Below, in pieces: positions 6,117 to 30,026 of a stretch of DNA of 64,000 bases. The position numbers and the translations under genes were made by a program. Numbering within the stretch: position 1 is the stretch's first letter; every line of letters begins with the position of its first letter. Below the pieces are notes generated by a model that searched no databases, was not told the DNA's origin, and saw only the letters and a program-made list of their open reading frames with translations. The stretch is from an uncultured Candidatus Saccharibacteria bacterium (GTDB lineage: Bacteria; Patescibacteriota; Minisyncoccia; Phycocordibacterales; CAIZLB01): positions 22,699-86,698 of the forward strand of contig CAYJDM010000005.1 in the NCBI GenBank assembly GCA_964368945.1. The letters are read 5' to 3'.

Positions 6117-7145
6117 TTAAGATTGAATGAACTTGAAGCTCTTTACCATATCTTCCAAAATCCCCTGCACTTTCGCGCGATCGAATTCGGAGATTCCCTG
6201 AGACGGATCATAATTGCCTAAATTCGTAGAGTGGATCGTATACTCGACTGCATAGCAAAGGCCATCGCGCATCGTTCGATAGCTTGTCGTATCATAATAA
6301 TTGCCAGCGCCGGCATCGCCGAGATTGTATTTGCTGAATGCGACGCCATTGATCGTCACCCTGCCAGCCGAGACTGGATTCGTTGCTGAATCGGCAGCAG
6401 GATTCGCGACTTCGGGATTATATCCTGGTGTTTCGCCATTCGATGCGCGCAAACAAAGCTCTATCGATTTCGGATCAGCGCTTGAGCCCACGACGAATGT
6501 AGCTTCGCTGAAATTCGTCTTTGGCTGGAATGATCGCGGAATGACTACGGTTACGAGACGGTCGCCCATCGTATCAGCATTCGCGCGCCATTGCTGCGAA
6601 AGTTCGATTTCGTCGCCGACGACCATGAATTGCTTTGGATATGCGAAAGAGAATGTCTCTGCCTCATTCGTGAACGCATACTTCGAATCAGTGCCGAGCG
6701 TGCCTGAATCATCGCTTGCTACATTTCCAGCTACACAATCCGAATAGATGGCCTTATTTTTTTCCATGACCATCGCCGAATCCCCTTTTCCGATGAATGC
6801 AATATCGCCCTTCTCATATCTGATGCCGGAGCCAGAAACGACTTGAGGCAAAATGAATTCTCTTCCATCCGCCAGTGCGAGGCTCATCATCGAATCGCCG
6901 GCGTTTGTGCCATTGGCACCAGTCGCAGCTGTCTGATTATCGAATTGCGCCGTGACAGTTCCTTCCTTGCAAAAATACATAACTGAATCGTCAGAATCAT
7001 CGGCATCGTTCGCCGCTCCATTGCCATTATTATTCTGCGTCGTCACGCCATTCACCAAAGAAGGATTCATTACAGCAACCCTATCGATGATGATAACCAG
7101 TGCGATGAGAAAAAGCACCGGAATGATTATGTTTTTATATTTCAT
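6117..7145 (-). CDS. Secreted protein with MliC-like (membrane-bound lysozyme inhibitor of C-type lysozyme) domain
   Basis: Signal/anchor MKYKNIIIPVLFLIALVIII. The YFCKEGT...ILPQVVSGSGIRYEKGDIAFIGKGDSAMV...YSDC stretch matches the MliC pattern (Y.C...SGSGArY...KG..A......C). Confidence 0.55.
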   Translation of the reverse strand: MKYKNIIIPVLFLIALVIIIDRVAVMNPSLVNGVTTQNNNGNGAANDADDSDDSVMYFCKEGTVTAQFDNQTAATGANGTNAGDSMMSLALADGREFILPQVVSGSGIRYEKGDIAFIGKGDSAMVMEKNKAIYSDCVAGNVASDDSGTLGTDSKYAFTNEAETFSFAYPKQFMVVGDEIELSQQWRANADTMGDRLVTVVIPRSFQPKTNFSEATFVVGSSADPKSIELCLRASNGETPGYNPEVANPAADSATNPVSAGRVTINGVAFSKYNLGDAGAGNYYDTTSYRTMRDGLCYAVEYTIHSTNLGNYDPSQGISEFDRAKVQGILEDMVKSFKFIQS

Positions 7146-7157
7146 GCCTCAAGTATA

Positions 7158-8090
7158 TCAAATGGTGACATTGATGGGCGCAGCCGGAGGAAGATCGTCA
7201 TGATCATGCTGCTGAGCGACCGGTTGCTGCTGCCCGCCCTGCGGCTGTGCAGCGCCTTGAGAACTGCCCTGAGAACCCACCCATCCTACCGGAGACTGGG
7301 TTGGCGAGGATGTCTGCACCTGAGGCTGACCAGCTTGCTCGCCAACAGGAGGATGATCCGCGAGCGGAATCTGCTCGACCGCATGAGCCTGCGCATGCTG
7401 CTGAGGCGTCATCGGGAAAGGAGCTTGTGGCGGCGTCTCATGAACCTCGCCTGCGACCGGAGCCTGCTGAATGATCGGCGCGCCCGTCATGATGCCGTCG
7501 CGCTTCTGATGATGATATGTATTCGCGACTTCCGCATAGAAAGCGGGATTTGGAATATGGTGCAGGATAAAAATCGGAGCCAATTTATCATCAAGGCATT
7601 TCAAATCGCCAAAGCGGAATATTTTGCCGAGAAGTCCTTCCTCTATCTGAAAGGATTTCACATTCTTCAGGTCGTATACTGTCTGCGAGCTGAATATGAT
7701 TCCCTTTTTTATCTTGATGACATCAGGCGAGATCATATAATAGTCATTGATATGCACCATGATGATGCCGACTATATAGAGCAGATATGAGAAAACCAAA
7801 ACGAAGCTTATGACCAGGCTTGCCGAATTCATCATTGATGGCTGGCCGGCTGAAGGCGCGGCAGAGAATGCATTTGAGAAAAGAGGAATCAAAACCCCTG
7901 ACAAGAGGACCTGCAAAAGCACCCAAGCGACTATCAGTCCGAGCGTGCCGATTGCGATGCGTGTAATCGGTATGATTATATCCTTGCGGACGATATGGGT
8001 ATAAAGCACCTGCGGCTGAGCGGGAGCCTGTACGGGCGCTTGAGGAGCAGGCTGCGCCGATTGCTGTGGCTGAGTCATATCTGGTGGCAT
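7158..8090 (-). CDS. Membrane protein with bPH_2 (YdbT-like bacterial PH) domain and Pro/Gln-rich disordered tail
   Basis: Start reassigned to the internal ATG (MPPDMTQ). It has TM helices, and IKIKKGIIFSSQTVYDLKNVKSFQIEEGLLGKIFRFGDL is a bPH_2-like motif. The C-terminus is low-complexity and P/Q-rich. Confidence 0.55.
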   Translation of the reverse strand: MPPDMTQPQQSAQPAPQAPVQAPAQPQVLYTHIVRKDIIIPITRIAIGTLGLIVAWVLLQVLLSGVLIPLFSNAFSAAPSAGQPSMMNSASLVISFVLVFSYLLYIVGIIMVHINDYYMISPDVIKIKKGIIFSSQTVYDLKNVKSFQIEEGLLGKIFRFGDLKCLDDKLAPIFILHHIPNPAFYAEVANTYHHQKRDGIMTGAPIIQQAPVAGEVHETPPQAPFPMTPQQHAQAHAVEQIPLADHPPVGEQAGQPQVQTSSPTQSPVGWVGSQGSSQGAAQPQGGQQQPVAQQHDHDDLPPAAPINVTI

Positions 8091-8181
8091 GCAATAAGTG
8101 TACGCTCGAAAAAGAAAAACCGCCACCCGGATGGGCGGCGGCTCTTCTTTCAATTCTGCTTTTATGCAGAATTCTTCATTC

Positions 8182-8655
8182 TTACATATTCGGAGTCGAG
8201 GGAGGATTTGAAGGCATCTCTGGCGCAGCAGCTGACGCTGATGGAGCCGATGGAGCAGCGGGAGCTGCAGGAGCCGCAGTCGCAGTAGCCGTTCGCATGC
8301 CCTTTGGATTCGGGCCATACTTATTGTCCGGGCCGCTATCGCCTACTGTGAATACCAGCAATATGATCCATCCGACGAGAGGAATGAGACCGATAAGCAT
8401 CCACCAGCCGCTTCGATTAGTGTCATGCAATCGTCGTGCCAATACCGCAAGAGACGGAATCAAGACAGCAAGAGAGTATATTGATCCTATGATGCCGATT
8501 GACTCTTCCGCACCTGCTTTTCCAATGAAGCCATCGATAAAGCCGAGTACGAAGCTGATAATGATGTTGAATAGGATAAAAAACCAATATTCTGATCGAG
8601 TCGCTCGTCCAGAGAACGTAGCGTATTTCTTCAAAACCGTTAGATAATGATTCAT
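8182..8655 (-). CDS. DUF805-family inner-membrane protein
   Basis: RATRSEYWFFILFNIIISFV...LARRLHDTNRSGWWMLIGLIPLVGWIILLVF is the characteristic DUF805 pattern. C-terminal Ala/Pro-rich tail. Confidence 0.65.
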   Translation of the reverse strand: MNHYLTVLKKYATFSGRATRSEYWFFILFNIIISFVLGFIDGFIGKAGAEESIGIIGSIYSLAVLIPSLAVLARRLHDTNRSGWWMLIGLIPLVGWIILLVFTVGDSGPDNKYGPNPKGMRTATATAAPAAPAAPSAPSASAAAPEMPSNPPSTPNM

Positions 8656-8796
8656 CTGAGTTAAATAATGCTAATAAGGAATCGCCTATAAGTATAGCAA
8701 ATTAGCCCTGTATGCCAGGACGCCCTGGGGATGATGAAGATTGGATGAAGACGATCTTCCTCGACATCGGCACCCACCTCGTCGCATGGATTCGGC

Positions 8797-10662
8797 CTAT
8801 TTGCCAAAGACCCCTTTGAGGAATTCGGCAACCTTAGGGTATGCATCGAGACGGTTCTTGAGCTTGCTGAGGCCATGGCCTTCATCATGATAGACAAGCA
8901 GCTCTGCCCTGCCTCCTTGCGCGGTGATCTTTTCGACGATCTGCTCTGCCTCATTCAAAGGAACGCGAGGATCATTGGCTCCATGGATTACGAAGAGCGG
9001 CGCCTTTATTTTTTCTATATGATTGATGGGAGAAATATCATGCAAAAGCTGACGATCCGTAGCGAGCGATCCATATTCAGCCTCGCGAATCGCGCGACGA
9101 TATGATGCTGTATTCTCGAGGAATGTGACGAAGTTCGCGATGCCTACGACATCGATTCCGCCAACCCAGCGATCCGGATGAAAAGCGAGACCGGCAAGCG
9201 TCATATATCCGCCATAGCTTCCGCCCATCAGGACGACCTTATTCGCATCAAGTTCCGGCATCGTCTTTATATGATCATGCAGCGATGCGATATCGCTCAC
9301 GGAGTCGAGCCGCTTTTCGACATCGTCCATTGCGAGATATTTCTTTCCATAGCCAGCGCCGCCTCTGACATTCGGTGCAATGACCGCATATCCCTGATAT
9401 ACGAAATATTGAATGAGCAAAGCGAGATTCGGCTGGAATTGCGATTCCGGCCCGCCATGGATATGAATGATGACAGGAACTTTTTCATCGCTCACATTGT
9501 TTGCGGCGGCGGGATTTTTTGGCAGGTATAAAAAAGCAGGGACGCTTAGGCCATCGAATGATTCGTACCTGAATAATGCAGGCTCGACGAGATCTTCTGG
9601 CAGAACACCTTGTGCGGTATTGGTAATAGGCCAGCTTTTCTTTTCATCGATCGAATACATCCAGATATTCGTCGCATGTCGTGAATCATTCGTCGTGACG
9701 ATGAGATTCTTTGAATCGCGGGAAAACCTGCATGAAGTAATAGTCGTCTCCTCAGACAAGCCGGTCAATGGGACAGGAATAAAATTATCGGCATTTCGCG
9801 CATTATTCGAAATATCGAATAAGCGGAGTTTTTCATATCCATCTTCATTGATCTGAACAGCGAGATATTTGCCATCCAGAGATATTGTGCAGCCATTCAC
9901 ATCCCAATCCGGCGTCATGATATATGCGAATTCTTTTTTCCCAATATCAAAAAAGCTCAGGCCACGAAAGTCCCTGCCTTTATCTGTCCTGGTAAAAAAT
10001 CCGCTCTCATCAGGAAGCCATGATGCGCCGCCAAAATATTCCGATCCTTCATGGGCATTGATATGCTCGATCGCTGTTTTTCGCCCTTCAGCATCGAGCG
10101 TAATGAGATAAAGATCCTTGTCCGTATTGGTATTGCTTGTCCTTACCAGCAGATACGATCTGTCGGGAGAAAAGCCCGCTGAATGTGAATCTCCGCCCTT
10201 ATCGAATACGCAATGGCTTTCGCCCGTCTCCATATTCATCAAATAGACATCGAAATCGGTTCCATTTCGTCCATTGTGAGAAAATGAGATGAATTTGCCA
10301 TCTCGAGAAAAGCTCCCGAATGAATGCTTGATTTTAGGATTGTCAGTCAGTGCCTTGGTCGACTTGGTTTCGAGATCATAGAGATAGAATTGCACCTGCT
10401 CATCGCCTCCTTTGTCTTTGCCATAGATGATCTGATTTTTGGTCGGAGAAAAAAGCGCGAAGTCGAGCGCGCCATCGTACGAAGTCAGCTGTTCTGCTTT
10501 GGCGTGATCATCGTCTTTGCCTATCCCTTCGCTCGAAATCAGATAGAGCTGATGCGTACCGCTGGCATTATTGAGAAAAGAAATCAGGCTGCCATCATGA
10601 TTGATCGACAGTGAGCCCGAAGCCTGCACTTTGAGAAAATCACTGATTTGATAGGTTTTCAT
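8797..10662 (-). CDS. S9-family serine peptidase (prolyl oligopeptidase / acylaminoacyl-peptidase-like) with N-terminal beta-propeller
   Basis: C-terminal alpha/beta-hydrolase with GGSYGGYMT nucleophile elbow and a later D and H (HGANDPRV...HGL). The N-terminal repeats look like a TolB/WD40-like propeller. Confidence 0.85.
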   Translation of the reverse strand: MKTYQISDFLKVQASGSLSINHDGSLISFLNNASGTHQLYLISSEGIGKDDDHAKAEQLTSYDGALDFALFSPTKNQIIYGKDKGGDEQVQFYLYDLETKSTKALTDNPKIKHSFGSFSRDGKFISFSHNGRNGTDFDVYLMNMETGESHCVFDKGGDSHSAGFSPDRSYLLVRTSNTNTDKDLYLITLDAEGRKTAIEHINAHEGSEYFGGASWLPDESGFFTRTDKGRDFRGLSFFDIGKKEFAYIMTPDWDVNGCTISLDGKYLAVQINEDGYEKLRLFDISNNARNADNFIPVPLTGLSEETTITSCRFSRDSKNLIVTTNDSRHATNIWMYSIDEKKSWPITNTAQGVLPEDLVEPALFRYESFDGLSVPAFLYLPKNPAAANNVSDEKVPVIIHIHGGPESQFQPNLALLIQYFVYQGYAVIAPNVRGGAGYGKKYLAMDDVEKRLDSVSDIASLHDHIKTMPELDANKVVLMGGSYGGYMTLAGLAFHPDRWVGGIDVVGIANFVTFLENTASYRRAIREAEYGSLATDRQLLHDISPINHIEKIKAPLFVIHGANDPRVPLNEAEQIVEKITAQGGRAELLVYHDEGHGLSKLKNRLDAYPKVAEFLKGVFGK

Positions 10663-12581: not shown

Positions 12582-13262
12582 TCAGATGATAGCAGATTCA
12601 TTGATGCGTCGCACGATTTCATCCCAAGAAAAGACCCTCTCGACATTCGCAGGCAAAACGCCGTCGGGTATCTCGATTCCCTGCTTTGTCATTTCCTTTT
12701 TGATCGATTCGATGGCATTCCATGGGGTATCGAGGAGAAAAGCCGTCTTTACGCAAGGGCTGACATCCAGAATGTTCTTATAGTGATCGTCGATGAAATA
12801 ATCTATGCGCAGATCCGCGCATATATGGGATTTCTTTTTTCGCCTTTCGACAATCTCATGATGAGGATTGGTAAAAACAATATCGCGAAATATGCCCGGC
12901 AGGTTTTTATCAATCCACCTATGCGTAATCTCCGCCCTATCGTCTCCGCGCGCAGTCACGATGACCAGATCATGATGCTGCGCTAGCGCTTTCACCCCTT
13001 CTATCGCCCCGTCGATCGCCGGGCCATGATGATGCATATCTGTGGCGCAAAATTCATTGACGAAGGCCTCCTCGGTGATTTTGTCCAAGCCCCAAAGAAA
13101 GCCCATATAATATTCATGCTGCTCATCCCTCTTGAATGCGGTGCCATATTTCTGATTGATGAACTCGCGCAAATCATCTGCCAGATTGTATACGACATCG
13201 TCGAAATCGATGCCTATGGTTTTGCGGGGTATGGGAGATTGCGGGTTTTCGGCGGGTGTCAT
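12582..13262 (-). CDS. HAD-superfamily hydrolase, 5'(3')-deoxyribonucleotidase (NT5C/YorS)-like
   Basis: HAD motif I IGIDFDDVV, motif II VIVTAR, motif IV YFIDD. Size and layout resemble the NT5C family. Confidence 0.5.
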   Translation of the reverse strand: MTPAENPQSPIPRKTIGIDFDDVVYNLADDLREFINQKYGTAFKRDEQHEYYMGFLWGLDKITEEAFVNEFCATDMHHHGPAIDGAIEGVKALAQHHDLVIVTARGDDRAEITHRWIDKNLPGIFRDIVFTNPHHEIVERRKKKSHICADLRIDYFIDDHYKNILDVSPCVKTAFLLDTPWNAIESIKKEMTKQGIEIPDGVLPANVERVFSWDEIVRRINESAII

Positions 13263-26510: not shown

Positions 26511-26661
26511 ACTTAAATTTTATCTCTTATTTGCTGGGAGAGAAGGAATCGGACCTTCATTGAGAGCTTCAAAGGCTCCTGTCCTACCATTAGACGATCT
26601 CCCAATAGATTTGTCAATACCCACTCAATCGAGGGGAATATACGACATATCGCCCACTACT

Positions 26662-27687: not shown

Positions 27688-27730
27688 GAGGATCAGTATA
27701 GCATTTGATGTTTTTTATGGAAAAAAACAC

Positions 27731-27760
27731 GCCGGCCCTTTCGGGCGCGGCATGCATTAT
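27731..27760 (-). terminator. Intrinsic terminator at the downstream end of the island (before dnaX)
   Basis: GC-rich stem GCCGGCCC tttc GGGCGCGGC with one bulge. Followed on the minus strand by a U-run. Confidence 0.5.
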
Positions 27761-27792: not shown

Positions 27793-28287
27793 TCAGCAGC
27801 ATTCGCATGGAACCAAATGACATTTGGTGCAACGGGGCTTCTTGCGTGGGCGAAGCTCATCGTTCGGAATCATGGCGTCTCGTGCCGCATTCAGGAACTC
27901 GGCGACTGTCATGCCGCCTTCCATGGATGCATCTTCCTCCAGATCATCTAGACAGGCAAACACGGTTCGCCAGCCTCCCTTGTCGAGCCTCACGGCCCGA
28001 AATCCCGGCAGGCAGATCATCTGCCAGTAATCTCCGAGGTCAGTGGATGCCTCGGCCTGAATCGGCTTGAAAGCATGAGCATAGATCAGACAATGATCCC
28101 GCACCGTTGACGATCCGCCCAAGATCCGAAAGAGGCCTGCGGCCAGTTCCTTTATCGTGTCTTCAGGCTTGAATAATCGCGCGATACGCGGATGGATTTC
28201 GCCTATCAATTCCCGATCTGTCAGGAAAGCGGCTTCTGCGACTGGTGTTGGTGTTGGCATGGTTCGAGTATCGCCCTCGCCCATCAT
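27793..28287 (-). CDS. Island gene C: hypothetical protein with C-terminal CxxCx4CxCC zinc-knuckle-like motif; paralog of gene B
   Basis: ORF with ATG-ATG start. C-terminus PRCTKCHLVPCECC. Shares the GW..FAC block (RLDKGGWRTVFAC) with gene B (RIKNSGWMQLFAC). Confidence 0.5.
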   Translation of the reverse strand: MMGEGDTRTMPTPTPVAEAAFLTDRELIGEIHPRIARLFKPEDTIKELAAGLFRILGGSSTVRDHCLIYAHAFKPIQAEASTDLGDYWQMICLPGFRAVRLDKGGWRTVFACLDDLEEDASMEGGMTVAEFLNAARDAMIPNDELRPRKKPRCTKCHLVPCECC

Positions 28288-28373
28288 GGACAAGAACTTG
28301 TTTTGGCGATATGCGGATCAGCGATTCGCTGCCATATGCGCAGCACGAATCCCTATCCCGCATATCGCCAAAA
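28266..28373. repeat. Regulatory repeat element copy 1: half-site TATCGCCCT, then inverted repeat TTTTGGCGATATGCGG ... CCGCATATCGCCAAAA (41-nt spacer containing the palindrome CAGCGA-T-TCGCTG)
   Basis: Seen directly. 16-bp perfect inverted repeat at 28301-28316 / 28358-28373, plus an upstream degenerate half-site at 28267-28277. Confidence 0.6.
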
Positions 28374-28447
28374 CCAAGCCGGATCAAAGGGCTATTGTTC
28401 TAAAGACACAATACACCATCGCTGCAAGCCGAGTCAAAAAATGCGCG

Positions 28448-28480
28448 CCGTCCCCACTCGGGGATCGGCGCGCATACTGC
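28448..28480 (-). terminator. Intrinsic terminator after island gene B
   Basis: GCGCGCCGTCCCC actc GGGGA(T)CGGCGCGC, a 13-bp stem with one bulge. Followed on the minus strand by a U-run. Confidence 0.55.
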
Positions 28481-28502
28481 GCATGCTTGCGAACGGCCAT
28501 CT

Positions 28503-28934
28503 TCAGGCCATGGCTTCCTCGACTTGCTTAGGAGCGAATTGAGGAAACGCCCCATAGATATCGCTGAGCGCGATCGTCTCATTCGATCCCCATGAATTCG
28601 TGATATTCCGATTTCTACATGCAAACAGCTGCATCCAGCCGCTATTTTTGATGCGGCGCATGTCCTCAATGGCGACGGGCATCCCGATGAGACCCCGTCG
28701 GATCGTTGAGGCGCTTGCGCCCTTGTTCGGAACATACAGTTCGTTGAAATACACCTTGACCGAAATCAGATCGCCGCCGTCATTCCTCATCACTGCCATG
28801 ACCAGCCCATCAGCAATCCGCTCCAGCGAGGAATTATGGCTTTTTGCAGCCGACGGAAGCACCAGATCCTTCATGATCGCGGCAATAATTTCAAGTGAGA
28901 CTCCGAGAGAGCTGAGTATTTCTTCTTTGTTCAT
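28503..28934 (-). CDS. Island gene B: hypothetical protein, paralog of gene C (no Cys knuckle)
   Basis: Start at the ATG (MNKEEILSSLG). The longer ORF-track start at 29039 would read through the regulatory repeat. Conserved block MRRIKNSGWMQLFAC. Confidence 0.45.
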   Translation of the reverse strand: MNKEEILSSLGVSLEIIAAIMKDLVLPSAAKSHNSSLERIADGLVMAVMRNDGGDLISVKVYFNELYVPNKGASASTIRRGLIGMPVAIEDMRRIKNSGWMQLFACRNRNITNSWGSNETIALSDIYGAFPQFAPKQVEEAMA

Positions 28935-28938
28935 GCTT

Positions 28939-29055
28939 GGATATCGCCCTTTCCGGTCATGGAAAGAATTTTGATTGTTTTGGCGATATGCGAAGGCTCG
29001 GGCAAGGACAAGGGAAAAAGCAAGGGGCGCCAAGAGCATTCGGATATCGCCAAAA
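28939..29055. repeat. Regulatory repeat element copy 2: half-site GGATATCGCCCT, then inverted repeat TTTTGGCGATATGCG ... CGGATATCGCCAAAA (48-nt spacer)
   Basis: Seen directly. Same architecture and half-site sequence as copy 1, 673 bp away. Confidence 0.6.
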
Positions 29056-29195
29056 CGGCTGAGAGAGCGGAAGGCAATGCAAGTATCACAGAAAGATCAT
29101 TCGTGAAAACTATACAATAGGCGCAAAAACTATGCCACTGTGCAAAACCATCTCTGACGGGCAGCGAAAATCTCGGTCAGACAGACAAAAAAAGC

Positions 29196-29221
29196 GCCGT
29201 CCCTTTCGGGACGGCGCTCGA
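29196..29221 (-). terminator. Intrinsic terminator after island gene A
   Basis: GCGCCGTCCC tttc GGGACGGCGC, a perfect 10-bp stem. Followed on the minus strand by a U-run. Confidence 0.6.
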
Positions 29222-29237: not shown

Positions 29238-30026
29238 TCAGCTCGCGGGCATCGATTCAACGGCCTCTACGCGCGGATGGTATTTTTCGAGTCCGAGTGC
29301 TACGAGCGTGCGACAAGCGCATGGCTTATTTCCGCAAGCCAGGCAGCCTTTTCCATAAAAATGGTCGACGGCTGTCGCAAGATCGATCTCGAGCATCGAG
29401 GAAATGGCGCAAATCCACGTGAATACATCCGCAAGCTCCTGAGCATAGCTATCGGCAATGTCATCCGACGTATTGAGCGGCTGCGTCGCATCGATCTCCA
29501 GCATCGCCACTTCGGACACTTCAGAAAAAAGCCGATTGAGCACGCCTTCGATTCCTGCCGCTTGATTATGCGCGCCATATCTTTGACGCAGCGTCTGCTG
29601 CCACATCGATATGCTCCATTCCAATTGCGCAGGATCGATCACGCTTTCGCATGGATTTTCCGATCGCGCCTCAGAGGCGCATGTGCATGGATCCGAGTTG
29701 CAGTACCCGCATTTGTTCGCAGGAAATTTCCGGCAGAGCGTCTCATTGAAGGGAAAGCCGGCATAGAATCCGTCGATGAAAGCCATCAGCCTCGAAAAGA
29801 GCGAAGCGCATGCCTTTCTCAAGACATGCCGATCTCGCTTCTTGCGAATGCAATCGTGAATATAGCGCACTGCCTTGAGCAGGAATGCGCCACGCTCGAG
29901 ACGGCTCCGCATGAGCAGGGAATTCTTCTTGCCGTATATTTCGGCGAAATGGGCCTGCCATGCATCGATTCCATACGTAGTTTTGTCTGTGGTTTCCGGT
30001 GTCGGTATCGCTGAAGAAGATTTCAT
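29238..30026 (-). CDS. Island gene A: tandem all-alpha MazG-like nucleotide pyrophosphohydrolase-like protein; each half ends in a CxxCx4CxC motif
   Basis: The second half aligns to small MazG/YpjD-type NTP-PPases (LFSEVSEVAMLEI; ELADVFTWICAISSMLEIDLATAVDHFYGK). The first half is a degenerate copy. Cys motifs are CGYCNSDPCTC and CLACGNKPCAC. Alternative TTG start at 30041. Confidence 0.55.
   Translation of the reverse strand: MKSSSAIPTPETTDKTTYGIDAWQAHFAEIYGKKNSLLMRSRLERGAFLLKAVRYIHDCIRKKRDRHVLRKACASLFSRLMAFIDGFYAGFPFNETLCRKFPANKCGYCNSDPCTCASEARSENPCESVIDPAQLEWSISMWQQTLRQRYGAHNQAAGIEGVLNRLFSEVSEVAMLEIDATQPLNTSDDIADSYAQELADVFTWICAISSMLEIDLATAVDHFYGKGCLACGNKPCACRTLVALGLEKYHPRVEAVESMPAS

Follow-up and report, generated by a model that had tools for sequence, protein, structure and literature searches.

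Two adjacent genes in a 64,000-nucleotide stretch of DNA from an uncultured Candidatus Saccharibacteria bacterium (contig CAYJDM010000005.1; hereafter the window) are each preceded by the same leader of about 120 nucleotides (nt), and purifying selection acts far more strongly on this leader than on the proteins encoded behind it. We use the names gene B and gene C from a preliminary description of this DNA, and all coordinates refer to the 64-kb window, in which every feature described at this locus lies on the minus strand. Duplication of a whole unit is the simplest history of the two genes and the one we moderately favor, and the shared element most likely places two orphan genes under common control through a structured leader. 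Little is known about gene regulation in the candidate phyla radiation (CPR/Patescibacteria), and most small proteins of these bacteria are orphans. The locus provides a compact case of an invariant non-coding leader in front of two quickly changing proteins. The leader is a candidate regulatory element that could be used to search complete genomes of the lineage for co-regulated genes, and a rare four-cysteine (Cys4) knuckle common to C and to the MazG-like product of the nearby gene A is one testable functional link and the only lead on the role of the proteins. The scope is narrow, in that the leader element was found in two strains only and the locus is a modest, lineage-restricted one rather than a new kind of system.

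Genes B and C share a homologous leader

The leaders of both genes have the same order of parts: an inverted pair of GTTTTGGCGATATGCG, a short hairpin around an upstream ATG, GGGCGATA and the start codon. The 16-mer GTTTTGGCGATATGCG is present in four copies with 0-1 mismatch (28300-28315, 28359-28374, 28977-28992 and 29041-29056) and nowhere else in 64 kb, and the copies form two inverted pairs at 28300-28374 and 28977-29056. Homology between the leaders runs from the gene-proximal arm to the start codon, as an 18-nt exact repeat followed by 35 nt at 71% identity, and blastn aligned the two leaders over 63 nt at 78% identity. At the start codon the DNA homology between the two units ends. The preliminary description had proposed that the upstream elements are homologous, and this is confirmed far beyond chance. 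The clear homology of the leaders means that the duplication included at least the regulatory module. The proposed repeat period of about 673 base pairs (bp), equal to one unit, agrees with spacings of 673-682 bp. For the terminator, also part of the proposed duplicated module, duplication is not established. Genes A, B and C each end in an intrinsic terminator with a GC-rich stem of 12-15 bp followed by U6-U7, but the resemblance among these terminators is no more than that of any GC stems with GAAA/GAGU-type loops, and the terminator of gene A, which is not duplicated, is just as similar.

The two leaders had also been described as standing in different reading-frame registers, and the frame difference traces to a 1-nt indel just before the start codon. 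An upstream ATG is conserved in both leaders within an invariant TCCATGA. This ATG (28287/28284) is in frame with C, whereas in B it opens a 9-codon upstream open reading frame (uORF; 28960-28931, MTGKGDIQA-stop), whose stop overlaps the ATG of B as ATGA. The distant C homolog P0005 starts at the position that corresponds to MPTPTP, with an in-frame stop before it, which indicates that the downstream ATG of C marks the conserved N-terminus.

No third copy of the leader was detected by nhmmer over the window and all loci, and the inverted-repeat pattern had no match in 185,579 representative genomes or in viral contigs. The sole metagenome match to the pattern (L029, 6391-6460) lies where a high-GC contig with a cytochrome c maturation operon ends in a perfect fold-back, and was rejected as an unrelated artefact or chance palindrome. 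Independent metagenome assemblies break in or beside the upstream inverted repeat (at position 1 of L001 and at the end of L004, corresponding to about 28985 and 29067 of the window), which is to be expected if repeated 16-18-mers make the assembly graph ambiguous.

The leader is more constrained than any other part of the locus

Only one related strain was found, represented by a 1.76-kb contig (L001) that carries both orthologs, both leaders and dnaX; an exact-protein look-up with dnaX for further strains returned no record. Between the window and L001, synonymous divergence is 0.35-0.67. The dnaX products are 100% identical and their DNA 94% identical, with a synonymous substitution rate (dS) of 0.35. 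The B proteins are 63% identical (DNA 74%) and the C proteins 72-73% identical (DNA 78%; ortholog P0002). Neither gene shows indels, both show an excess of third-position changes, and the ratio of nonsynonymous to synonymous rates (dN/dS) is 0.36 for B and 0.28 for C. These features identify B and C as real, fast-evolving coding genes.

The leader behaves differently. From the proximal arm through the 39 nt that lead to the ATG of C (28261-28315), all 55 of 55 positions are identical in the two strains. The distal arm of the C leader matches at 15/16 positions (31/32 for both arms), and the B leader at 39/42. Other intergenic DNA is 71-82% identical and contains indels. With 55/55 identity against 74-78% in coding DNA and 71-82% in the remaining intergenic DNA, the leader is under the tightest constraint at the locus.

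The leader is predicted to form a long and a short hairpin

The long hairpin of the C leader has a predicted folding energy of -51.4 kcal/mol (z -8.9) and that of the B leader -33.3 kcal/mol (z -6.8). The outer 13-17 pairs of both long stems consist of shared sequence. The inner stems pair in both elements with different sequence (GCGG/CCGC... versus CGAA/UUCG and GCUC/GAGC), the apical parts differ in length and sequence, and the arm centres are 59 bp apart in one element and 64 bp in the other, a difference of half a helical turn. The re-paired inner stems, the differing apical parts and the unequal arm distance favor a selected hairpin over two independent protein half-sites.

The short hairpins point in the same direction. 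The B leaders of the window and L001 differ by three substitutions, two of which together amount to a compensatory change of a U-A to a C-G pair in the short hairpin. The short hairpin of C contains four G-U pairs and folds at -14.2 kcal/mol in the sense strand, with no structure in the antisense strand; because it depends on G-U pairs, it can form in the sense strand only. Over both hairpins, one compensatory pair was found in the short and two in the long (3-4 sequences compared, one substitution being uncompensated). A terminator or attenuator role for the long stem was rejected, as no U run follows the stem. No Rfam family reached its gathering threshold in the region, where only chance-level matches to microRNA-type hairpins were seen; in the window, tRNA-Gln alone passes.

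B and C are near-orphan proteins that share a 13-residue block

B and C are best read as fast-evolving, lineage-restricted, near-orphan cytoplasmic proteins. Neither had a match below an expect value (E) of 0.01 in Pfam, PHROGs, NCBIfam or PADLOC or a credible match among PDB sequences, and no signal peptide or transmembrane segment is visible in either. Homologs were sought among 5.8 billion proteins with a word index and among 1.84 billion representatives by exhaustive HMMER. The word-index search with the A, B and C proteins returned the self matches plus one ortholog. The homologs of C found are the L001 ortholog and P0005 (38% identity, E 6e-23), HMMER having added P0005 and one motif-level match to a repeat protein, and B had nothing beyond itself in the protein collections searched. 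Neither protein patterns nor blastn gave a signal of phage or viral origin.

The preliminary description took B and C to be tandem paralogs. At the DNA level this view holds, as there are two head-to-tail units of leader, gene and terminator with homologous leaders, but paralogy of the proteins is not established. The conserved block it listed could be recovered in its right-hand part only, where 13 residues align without gaps (RLDKGGWRTVFAC versus RIKNSGWMQLFAC, 6 identities) as R(L/I)xxxGWxx(V/L)FAC, at residues 91-103 and 94-106 of proteins of 143 and 155 residues; neither protein has the left half of the pattern in register. BLASTP of B against C gave E = 0.004 as a single comparison, and the Smith-Waterman score was reached in 4-15 of 1000 shuffles. 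Profile-profile comparison, with ortholog pairs and with a three-sequence C profile as inputs, scored 21.5-21.7 against a column-shuffle null of 12 +/- 2.4, a level reached in 0/300 and 0/200 shuffles, and an unmasked hhalign alignment is collinear over about 70 residues. Beyond the short block, however, no significant similarity was seen, the very outcome that the preliminary description had named as refuting its claim. Because similarity outside the 13 residues is at chance, protein paralogy is plausible but unproven from these alignments. It stays the likelier reading, since the block is above chance and lies at a near-equal position in proteins of similar length, and since the leaders are homologous.

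The segment LPGFRAVRLDKGGWRTVFA of C (residues ~84-103) resembles the last two strands of CarboxypepD_reg/prealbumin-like repeats (PGxYxLxAxKDGW). Its match, P0006, is a 1057-residue actinobacterial-type repeat protein (whole-library E 2e-4, summed over 4 repeats), and the resemblance probably reflects a beta-hairpin motif rather than homology.

A proposed model for common control through the leader

We propose that the whole unit of leader, open reading frame (ORF) and terminator was duplicated in tandem, which on balance seems the better supported course, and that afterwards the leader stayed constant and the proteins diverged until hardly any resemblance was left. Transcription would begin at promoter-like sites just past the preceding terminator, so that the inverted repeat is itself transcribed. 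Such sites are present on the correct strand in both terminator-to-hairpin gaps, as consensus matches only; a second candidate for the B unit, TGtGATACT near 29075-29083, was spotted by eye. The transcribed repeat would fold into a long stem-loop with an invariant base of 16-17 bp, and the second, short hairpin would display the conserved upstream AUG and pair a pyrimidine stretch with a purine tract. Common post-transcriptional control of B and C could then be exerted by a factor, or by a double-strand-specific RNase, that recognises the invariant stem. Ribosomes may enter at the upstream AUG, which would be in frame for C and would for B start the 9-codon uORF, coupled through AUGA to the main AUG. 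The shared control probably acts on the leader at the RNA level. The reading as a whole, duplicated units under shared leader control, we consider about as likely to be right as wrong.

Several observations weigh against it. When the 13-residue block is removed, the N-terminal and C-terminal parts of B and C score at the null (9.8 versus 10.0 and 6.6 versus 7.8), the FAC of the block is replaced in P0005, and the AlphaFold models of both proteins are unusable, with predicted local distance difference test (pLDDT) scores of 36 and 41. The covariation rests on 3-4 sequences, an uncompensated arm substitution in L001 (U to C) disrupts a pair, and the long B hairpin is slightly more stable in the antisense strand. 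The promoter scan found 4 sites where 2.6 were expected in shuffles, all of them consensus matches only, and the site of the C unit keeps its -35 in L001 but has a weaker -10, which reads TAATGT. Finally, most genes in the window look leaderless, and C has GATACT 6 nt before its ATG.

Structured stem-loops in 5' leaders control a number of bacterial mRNAs: those of rnc and pnp are processed by RNase III, the ompA hairpin is stabilising, and other hairpins sequester the ribosome-binding site. The B and C leaders resemble such leaders in that a long, near-perfect stem follows a promoter-like site ahead of the start codon, in that a small second hairpin pairs a pyrimidine stretch with a purine tract near the start, and in being more conserved than the protein. 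They differ in lacking an Rfam match and in having arms that are invariant in sequence and not in pairing alone; transcription of the element is predicted. The genome hardly uses Shine-Dalgarno sequences, so the classical version of ribosome-binding-site sequestration may not apply.

Alternative explanations

The inverted repeat could instead act as DNA. With GATACT-N6-ATG in C, the conserved 40 nt could be a core promoter and the inverted repeat an upstream operator, with leaderless or near-leaderless mRNA. Many window genes do lack a Shine-Dalgarno sequence and carry TATAMT 6-8 nt ahead of the ATG, as dnaX does (TTTCCA-17-TATACT-N7-ATG), and the arm sequence is invariant, not merely complementary, across paralogs and orthologs, as sequence-specific recognition predicts. 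B, however, has GATATC-N5-ATG, without the key final T of a -10 box. Arm spacing that differs by 5 bp between the elements and inner stems that stay complementary with different sequences fit an operator poorly, the G-U pairs needed by the short hairpin of C mean that it is no DNA palindrome, and no regulator gene was identified beside the units. On the bare choice between RNA and DNA we put an RNA leader slightly above even and a DNA operator at an appreciable minority share; the operator account set out here in full, with its core promoter in the 100%-conserved 40 nt, we regard as unlikely. It is possible, although doubtful, that only the leader is shared, so that unrelated orphan genes each gained the same element by recombination or gene conversion and the protein block arose by chance or convergence, for example on a beta-hairpin turn. 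The loss of all similarity outside the block, the replacement of FAC within the C family, the xGW turn motif that also matches unrelated CarboxypepD_reg repeats and the end of DNA homology at the start codon would all follow. Yet the block beats all 300 and all 200 column shuffles, its positions in the two proteins, which are similar in length, differ by no more than 3 residues, the unmasked alignment is collinear well beyond it, and the divergence of both proteins between strains is fast enough to erase an old duplication.

Two further explanations look beyond a leader, to mobile DNA and to protein conflict. Orphan ORFs of the same orientation that alternate with imperfect palindromes of 75-80 bp, with a period of about 0.68 kb, have a superficial likeness to integron cassettes (attC clusters without integrase included), and the metagenome assemblies break at the element. 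The polarity of the core is nevertheless reversed, being 5'-GTTTTGG...CCAAAAC-3' on both strands against 5'-RYYYAAC...GTTRRRY-3' in attC. Each palindrome is located 5' of its ORF and continues into the conserved leader, every ORF comes with a terminator and a promoter-like site of its own, no integrase turned up among the neighbours examined, and the flanks show no visible target duplication. A short conserved sequence in two inverted copies, with a variable spacer and an intergenic hairpin, also recalls a REPIN or a miniature inverted-repeat transposable element (MITE), but the 64 kb contain just two copies, which stand in homologous context before related units and are not dispersed, the homology extends to the start codon, and the pattern is absent from the representative genomes and viral contigs searched, its one metagenome match being the artefact described above. 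An invertible switch or promoter is implausible because the 43-48-bp spacer is itself palindromic and its inversion would change little. Taken together, mobile or recombination sites are a highly improbable explanation of the palindromes. Less remote, though still improbable, is a toxin/immunity or effector/inhibitor pair, to which the preliminary description had likened the array. B and C are small, adjacent and lineage-restricted and evolve fast compared with neighbouring dnaX, and this fast evolution (dN/dS 0.28-0.36) is the only suggestive trait. The profile and PDB sequence searches given above matched no toxin, immunity or defence model, a terminator between the genes makes them separate units, unlike typical co-transcribed pairs, signal peptides and transmembrane segments are not visible, and dN/dS is well below 1.

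Layout of the locus

In order of transcription the locus consists of dus (31405→30086), gene A (30026→29238) and its terminator, B and its terminator, C and its terminator, dnaX (27687→26662) and a tRNA-Gln gene. B and C are best read as two neighbouring transcription units, each with its own terminator, flanked by a MazG-like gene and dnaX. The coordinates of the features are collected in Table 1.

Table 1. Features of the B and C units and of gene A, in window coordinates and in order of transcription.
Feature	Coordinates	Strand	Description
Gene A	29238..30026	minus	262 residues, MazG-like; outside the repeat
Intrinsic terminator of gene A	29192..29219	minus	12-bp GC stem, GAAA loop, U7
Promoter-like site of the B unit	29109..29138	minus	Putative; GTGGCA-18-TATAGT, consensus match 9/12; between terminator and hairpin
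Long inverted repeat/hairpin, B leader	28977..29056	minus	16-nt arms, 48 nt between; stem extends to 23 pairs with 2 mismatches
Short hairpin and uORF, B leader	28931..28966	minus	CUUUCC-AUGACC-GGAAAG at 28966-28949; upstream AUG in loop
Gene B	28503..28934	minus	143 residues, MNKEEIL...; orphan protein
Intrinsic terminator of B	28435..28475	minus	Stem of ~15 bp, then U6; kept in L001
Promoter-like site of the C unit	28408..28437	minus	Putative consensus match; TTGACT-18-TATTGT
Long inverted repeat/hairpin, C leader	28300..28374	minus	16-nt arms, 43 nt between; 17 perfect pairs, 29 pairs at 86%
Proximal leader of C	28261..28299	minus	Short hairpin 28297-28273, upstream ATGs 28287/28284, then GGGCGATACT-N6-ATG
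Gene C	27793..28260	minus	155 residues from MPTPTP; gene callers start at 28284 (163 residues)
C-terminal Cys knuckle of C	27799..27831	minus	C-x2-C-x3-P-C-x-C after basic run RPRKKPR
Intrinsic terminator of C	27716..27755	minus	GC stem, GAAA loop, U7; directly upstream of dnaX promoter; kept in L001

The tRNA-Gln(UUG) gene (26533-26604, minus strand) lies ~60 nt downstream of dnaX and is the only Rfam/ARAGORN match in 64 kb, and its surroundings showed no trace of an integration site. The genome is patescibacterial and was assigned to the Paceibacterota; the closest relatives of dnaX are found in Paceibacterota/Parcubacteria metagenome-assembled genomes, the nearest being 65% identical (L005).

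Shine-Dalgarno sequences are missing from most long ORFs in the window, and in many of them TATAAT or TATACT precedes the ATG by 6-8 nt (for instance dnaX, 12582-13262 and 6117-7145). Gene A, which has AAGGAG, is an exception. The pattern of start regions suggests that leaderless mRNAs are widespread in this genome.

Gene A and the Cys knuckle

As the preliminary description had it, C carries a Cys knuckle that B lacks; C ends with CTKCHLVPCEC, and its basic run and knuckle tail are conserved in L001 and P0005. In ~400 kb of related CPR DNA, the pattern C-x2-C-x4-C-x-C is present only in the C family and in the gene A family. It occurs twice per protein in gene A and in its L005 homolog, and the knuckle of C aligns to the knuckle of A. 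Beyond this knuckle, neither B nor C showed homology to gene A or any other similarity to MazG, and a literature search for the Cys motif gave no match. The shared Cys4 knuckle suggests that C may work with the MazG-like protein A, or may bind the same partner or metal.

The product of gene A resembles the MazG family of all-alpha nucleoside triphosphate pyrophosphohydrolases, in that its C-terminal half aligns to MazG-like structures (PDB 1vmg, E 0.12, with ExxE...ExxD aligned) and keeps the ExxE...ExxD residues; E169/E172 and E197/D200 are invariant in A and the L005 homolog. It departs from the family in scoring below threshold against Pfam MazG (PF03819; 14.5 bits, cut-off 22) and in having two Cys knuckles and a degenerate N-terminal repeat. 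The two halves of gene A align with each other (hhalign Prob 79%, E 1.5e-5, 108 columns). As judged from these alignments, gene A is an internal tandem duplication of a predicted MazG-like helical domain plus C-x2-C-x4-C-x-C knuckle, in which only the C-terminal copy keeps ExxE...ExxD.

A far-reaching extension of the model, which we think unlikely to hold in full, is that CPR bacteria have, in this ~120-nt leader, a lineage-specific cis-regulatory RNA that had not been described before, composed of an invariant stem of 16-17 bp, an upstream AUG displayed in a loop and a uORF coupled through AUGA. A dedicated RNA-binding factor, possibly the basic, zinc-knuckle-tailed C itself, would recognise the leader, which would co-regulate a small set of rapidly diversifying orphans that act with the MazG-like enzyme A.

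In L005 the gene A homolog (8640-9422, 38% identity) also lies between dus and dnaX. The slot of B and C is occupied there by a different small gene, and the inverted-repeat element is absent. Between this gene A homolog and a gene for a secreted Kre9/KNH-like immunoglobulin (Ig)-domain protein, L005 has a GC-rich segment of ~1 kb (7620-8640). The segment contains overlapping ORFs on both strands (157 residues on the plus and 138 on the minus strand) with no Pfam match, and could be a remnant of inserted DNA.

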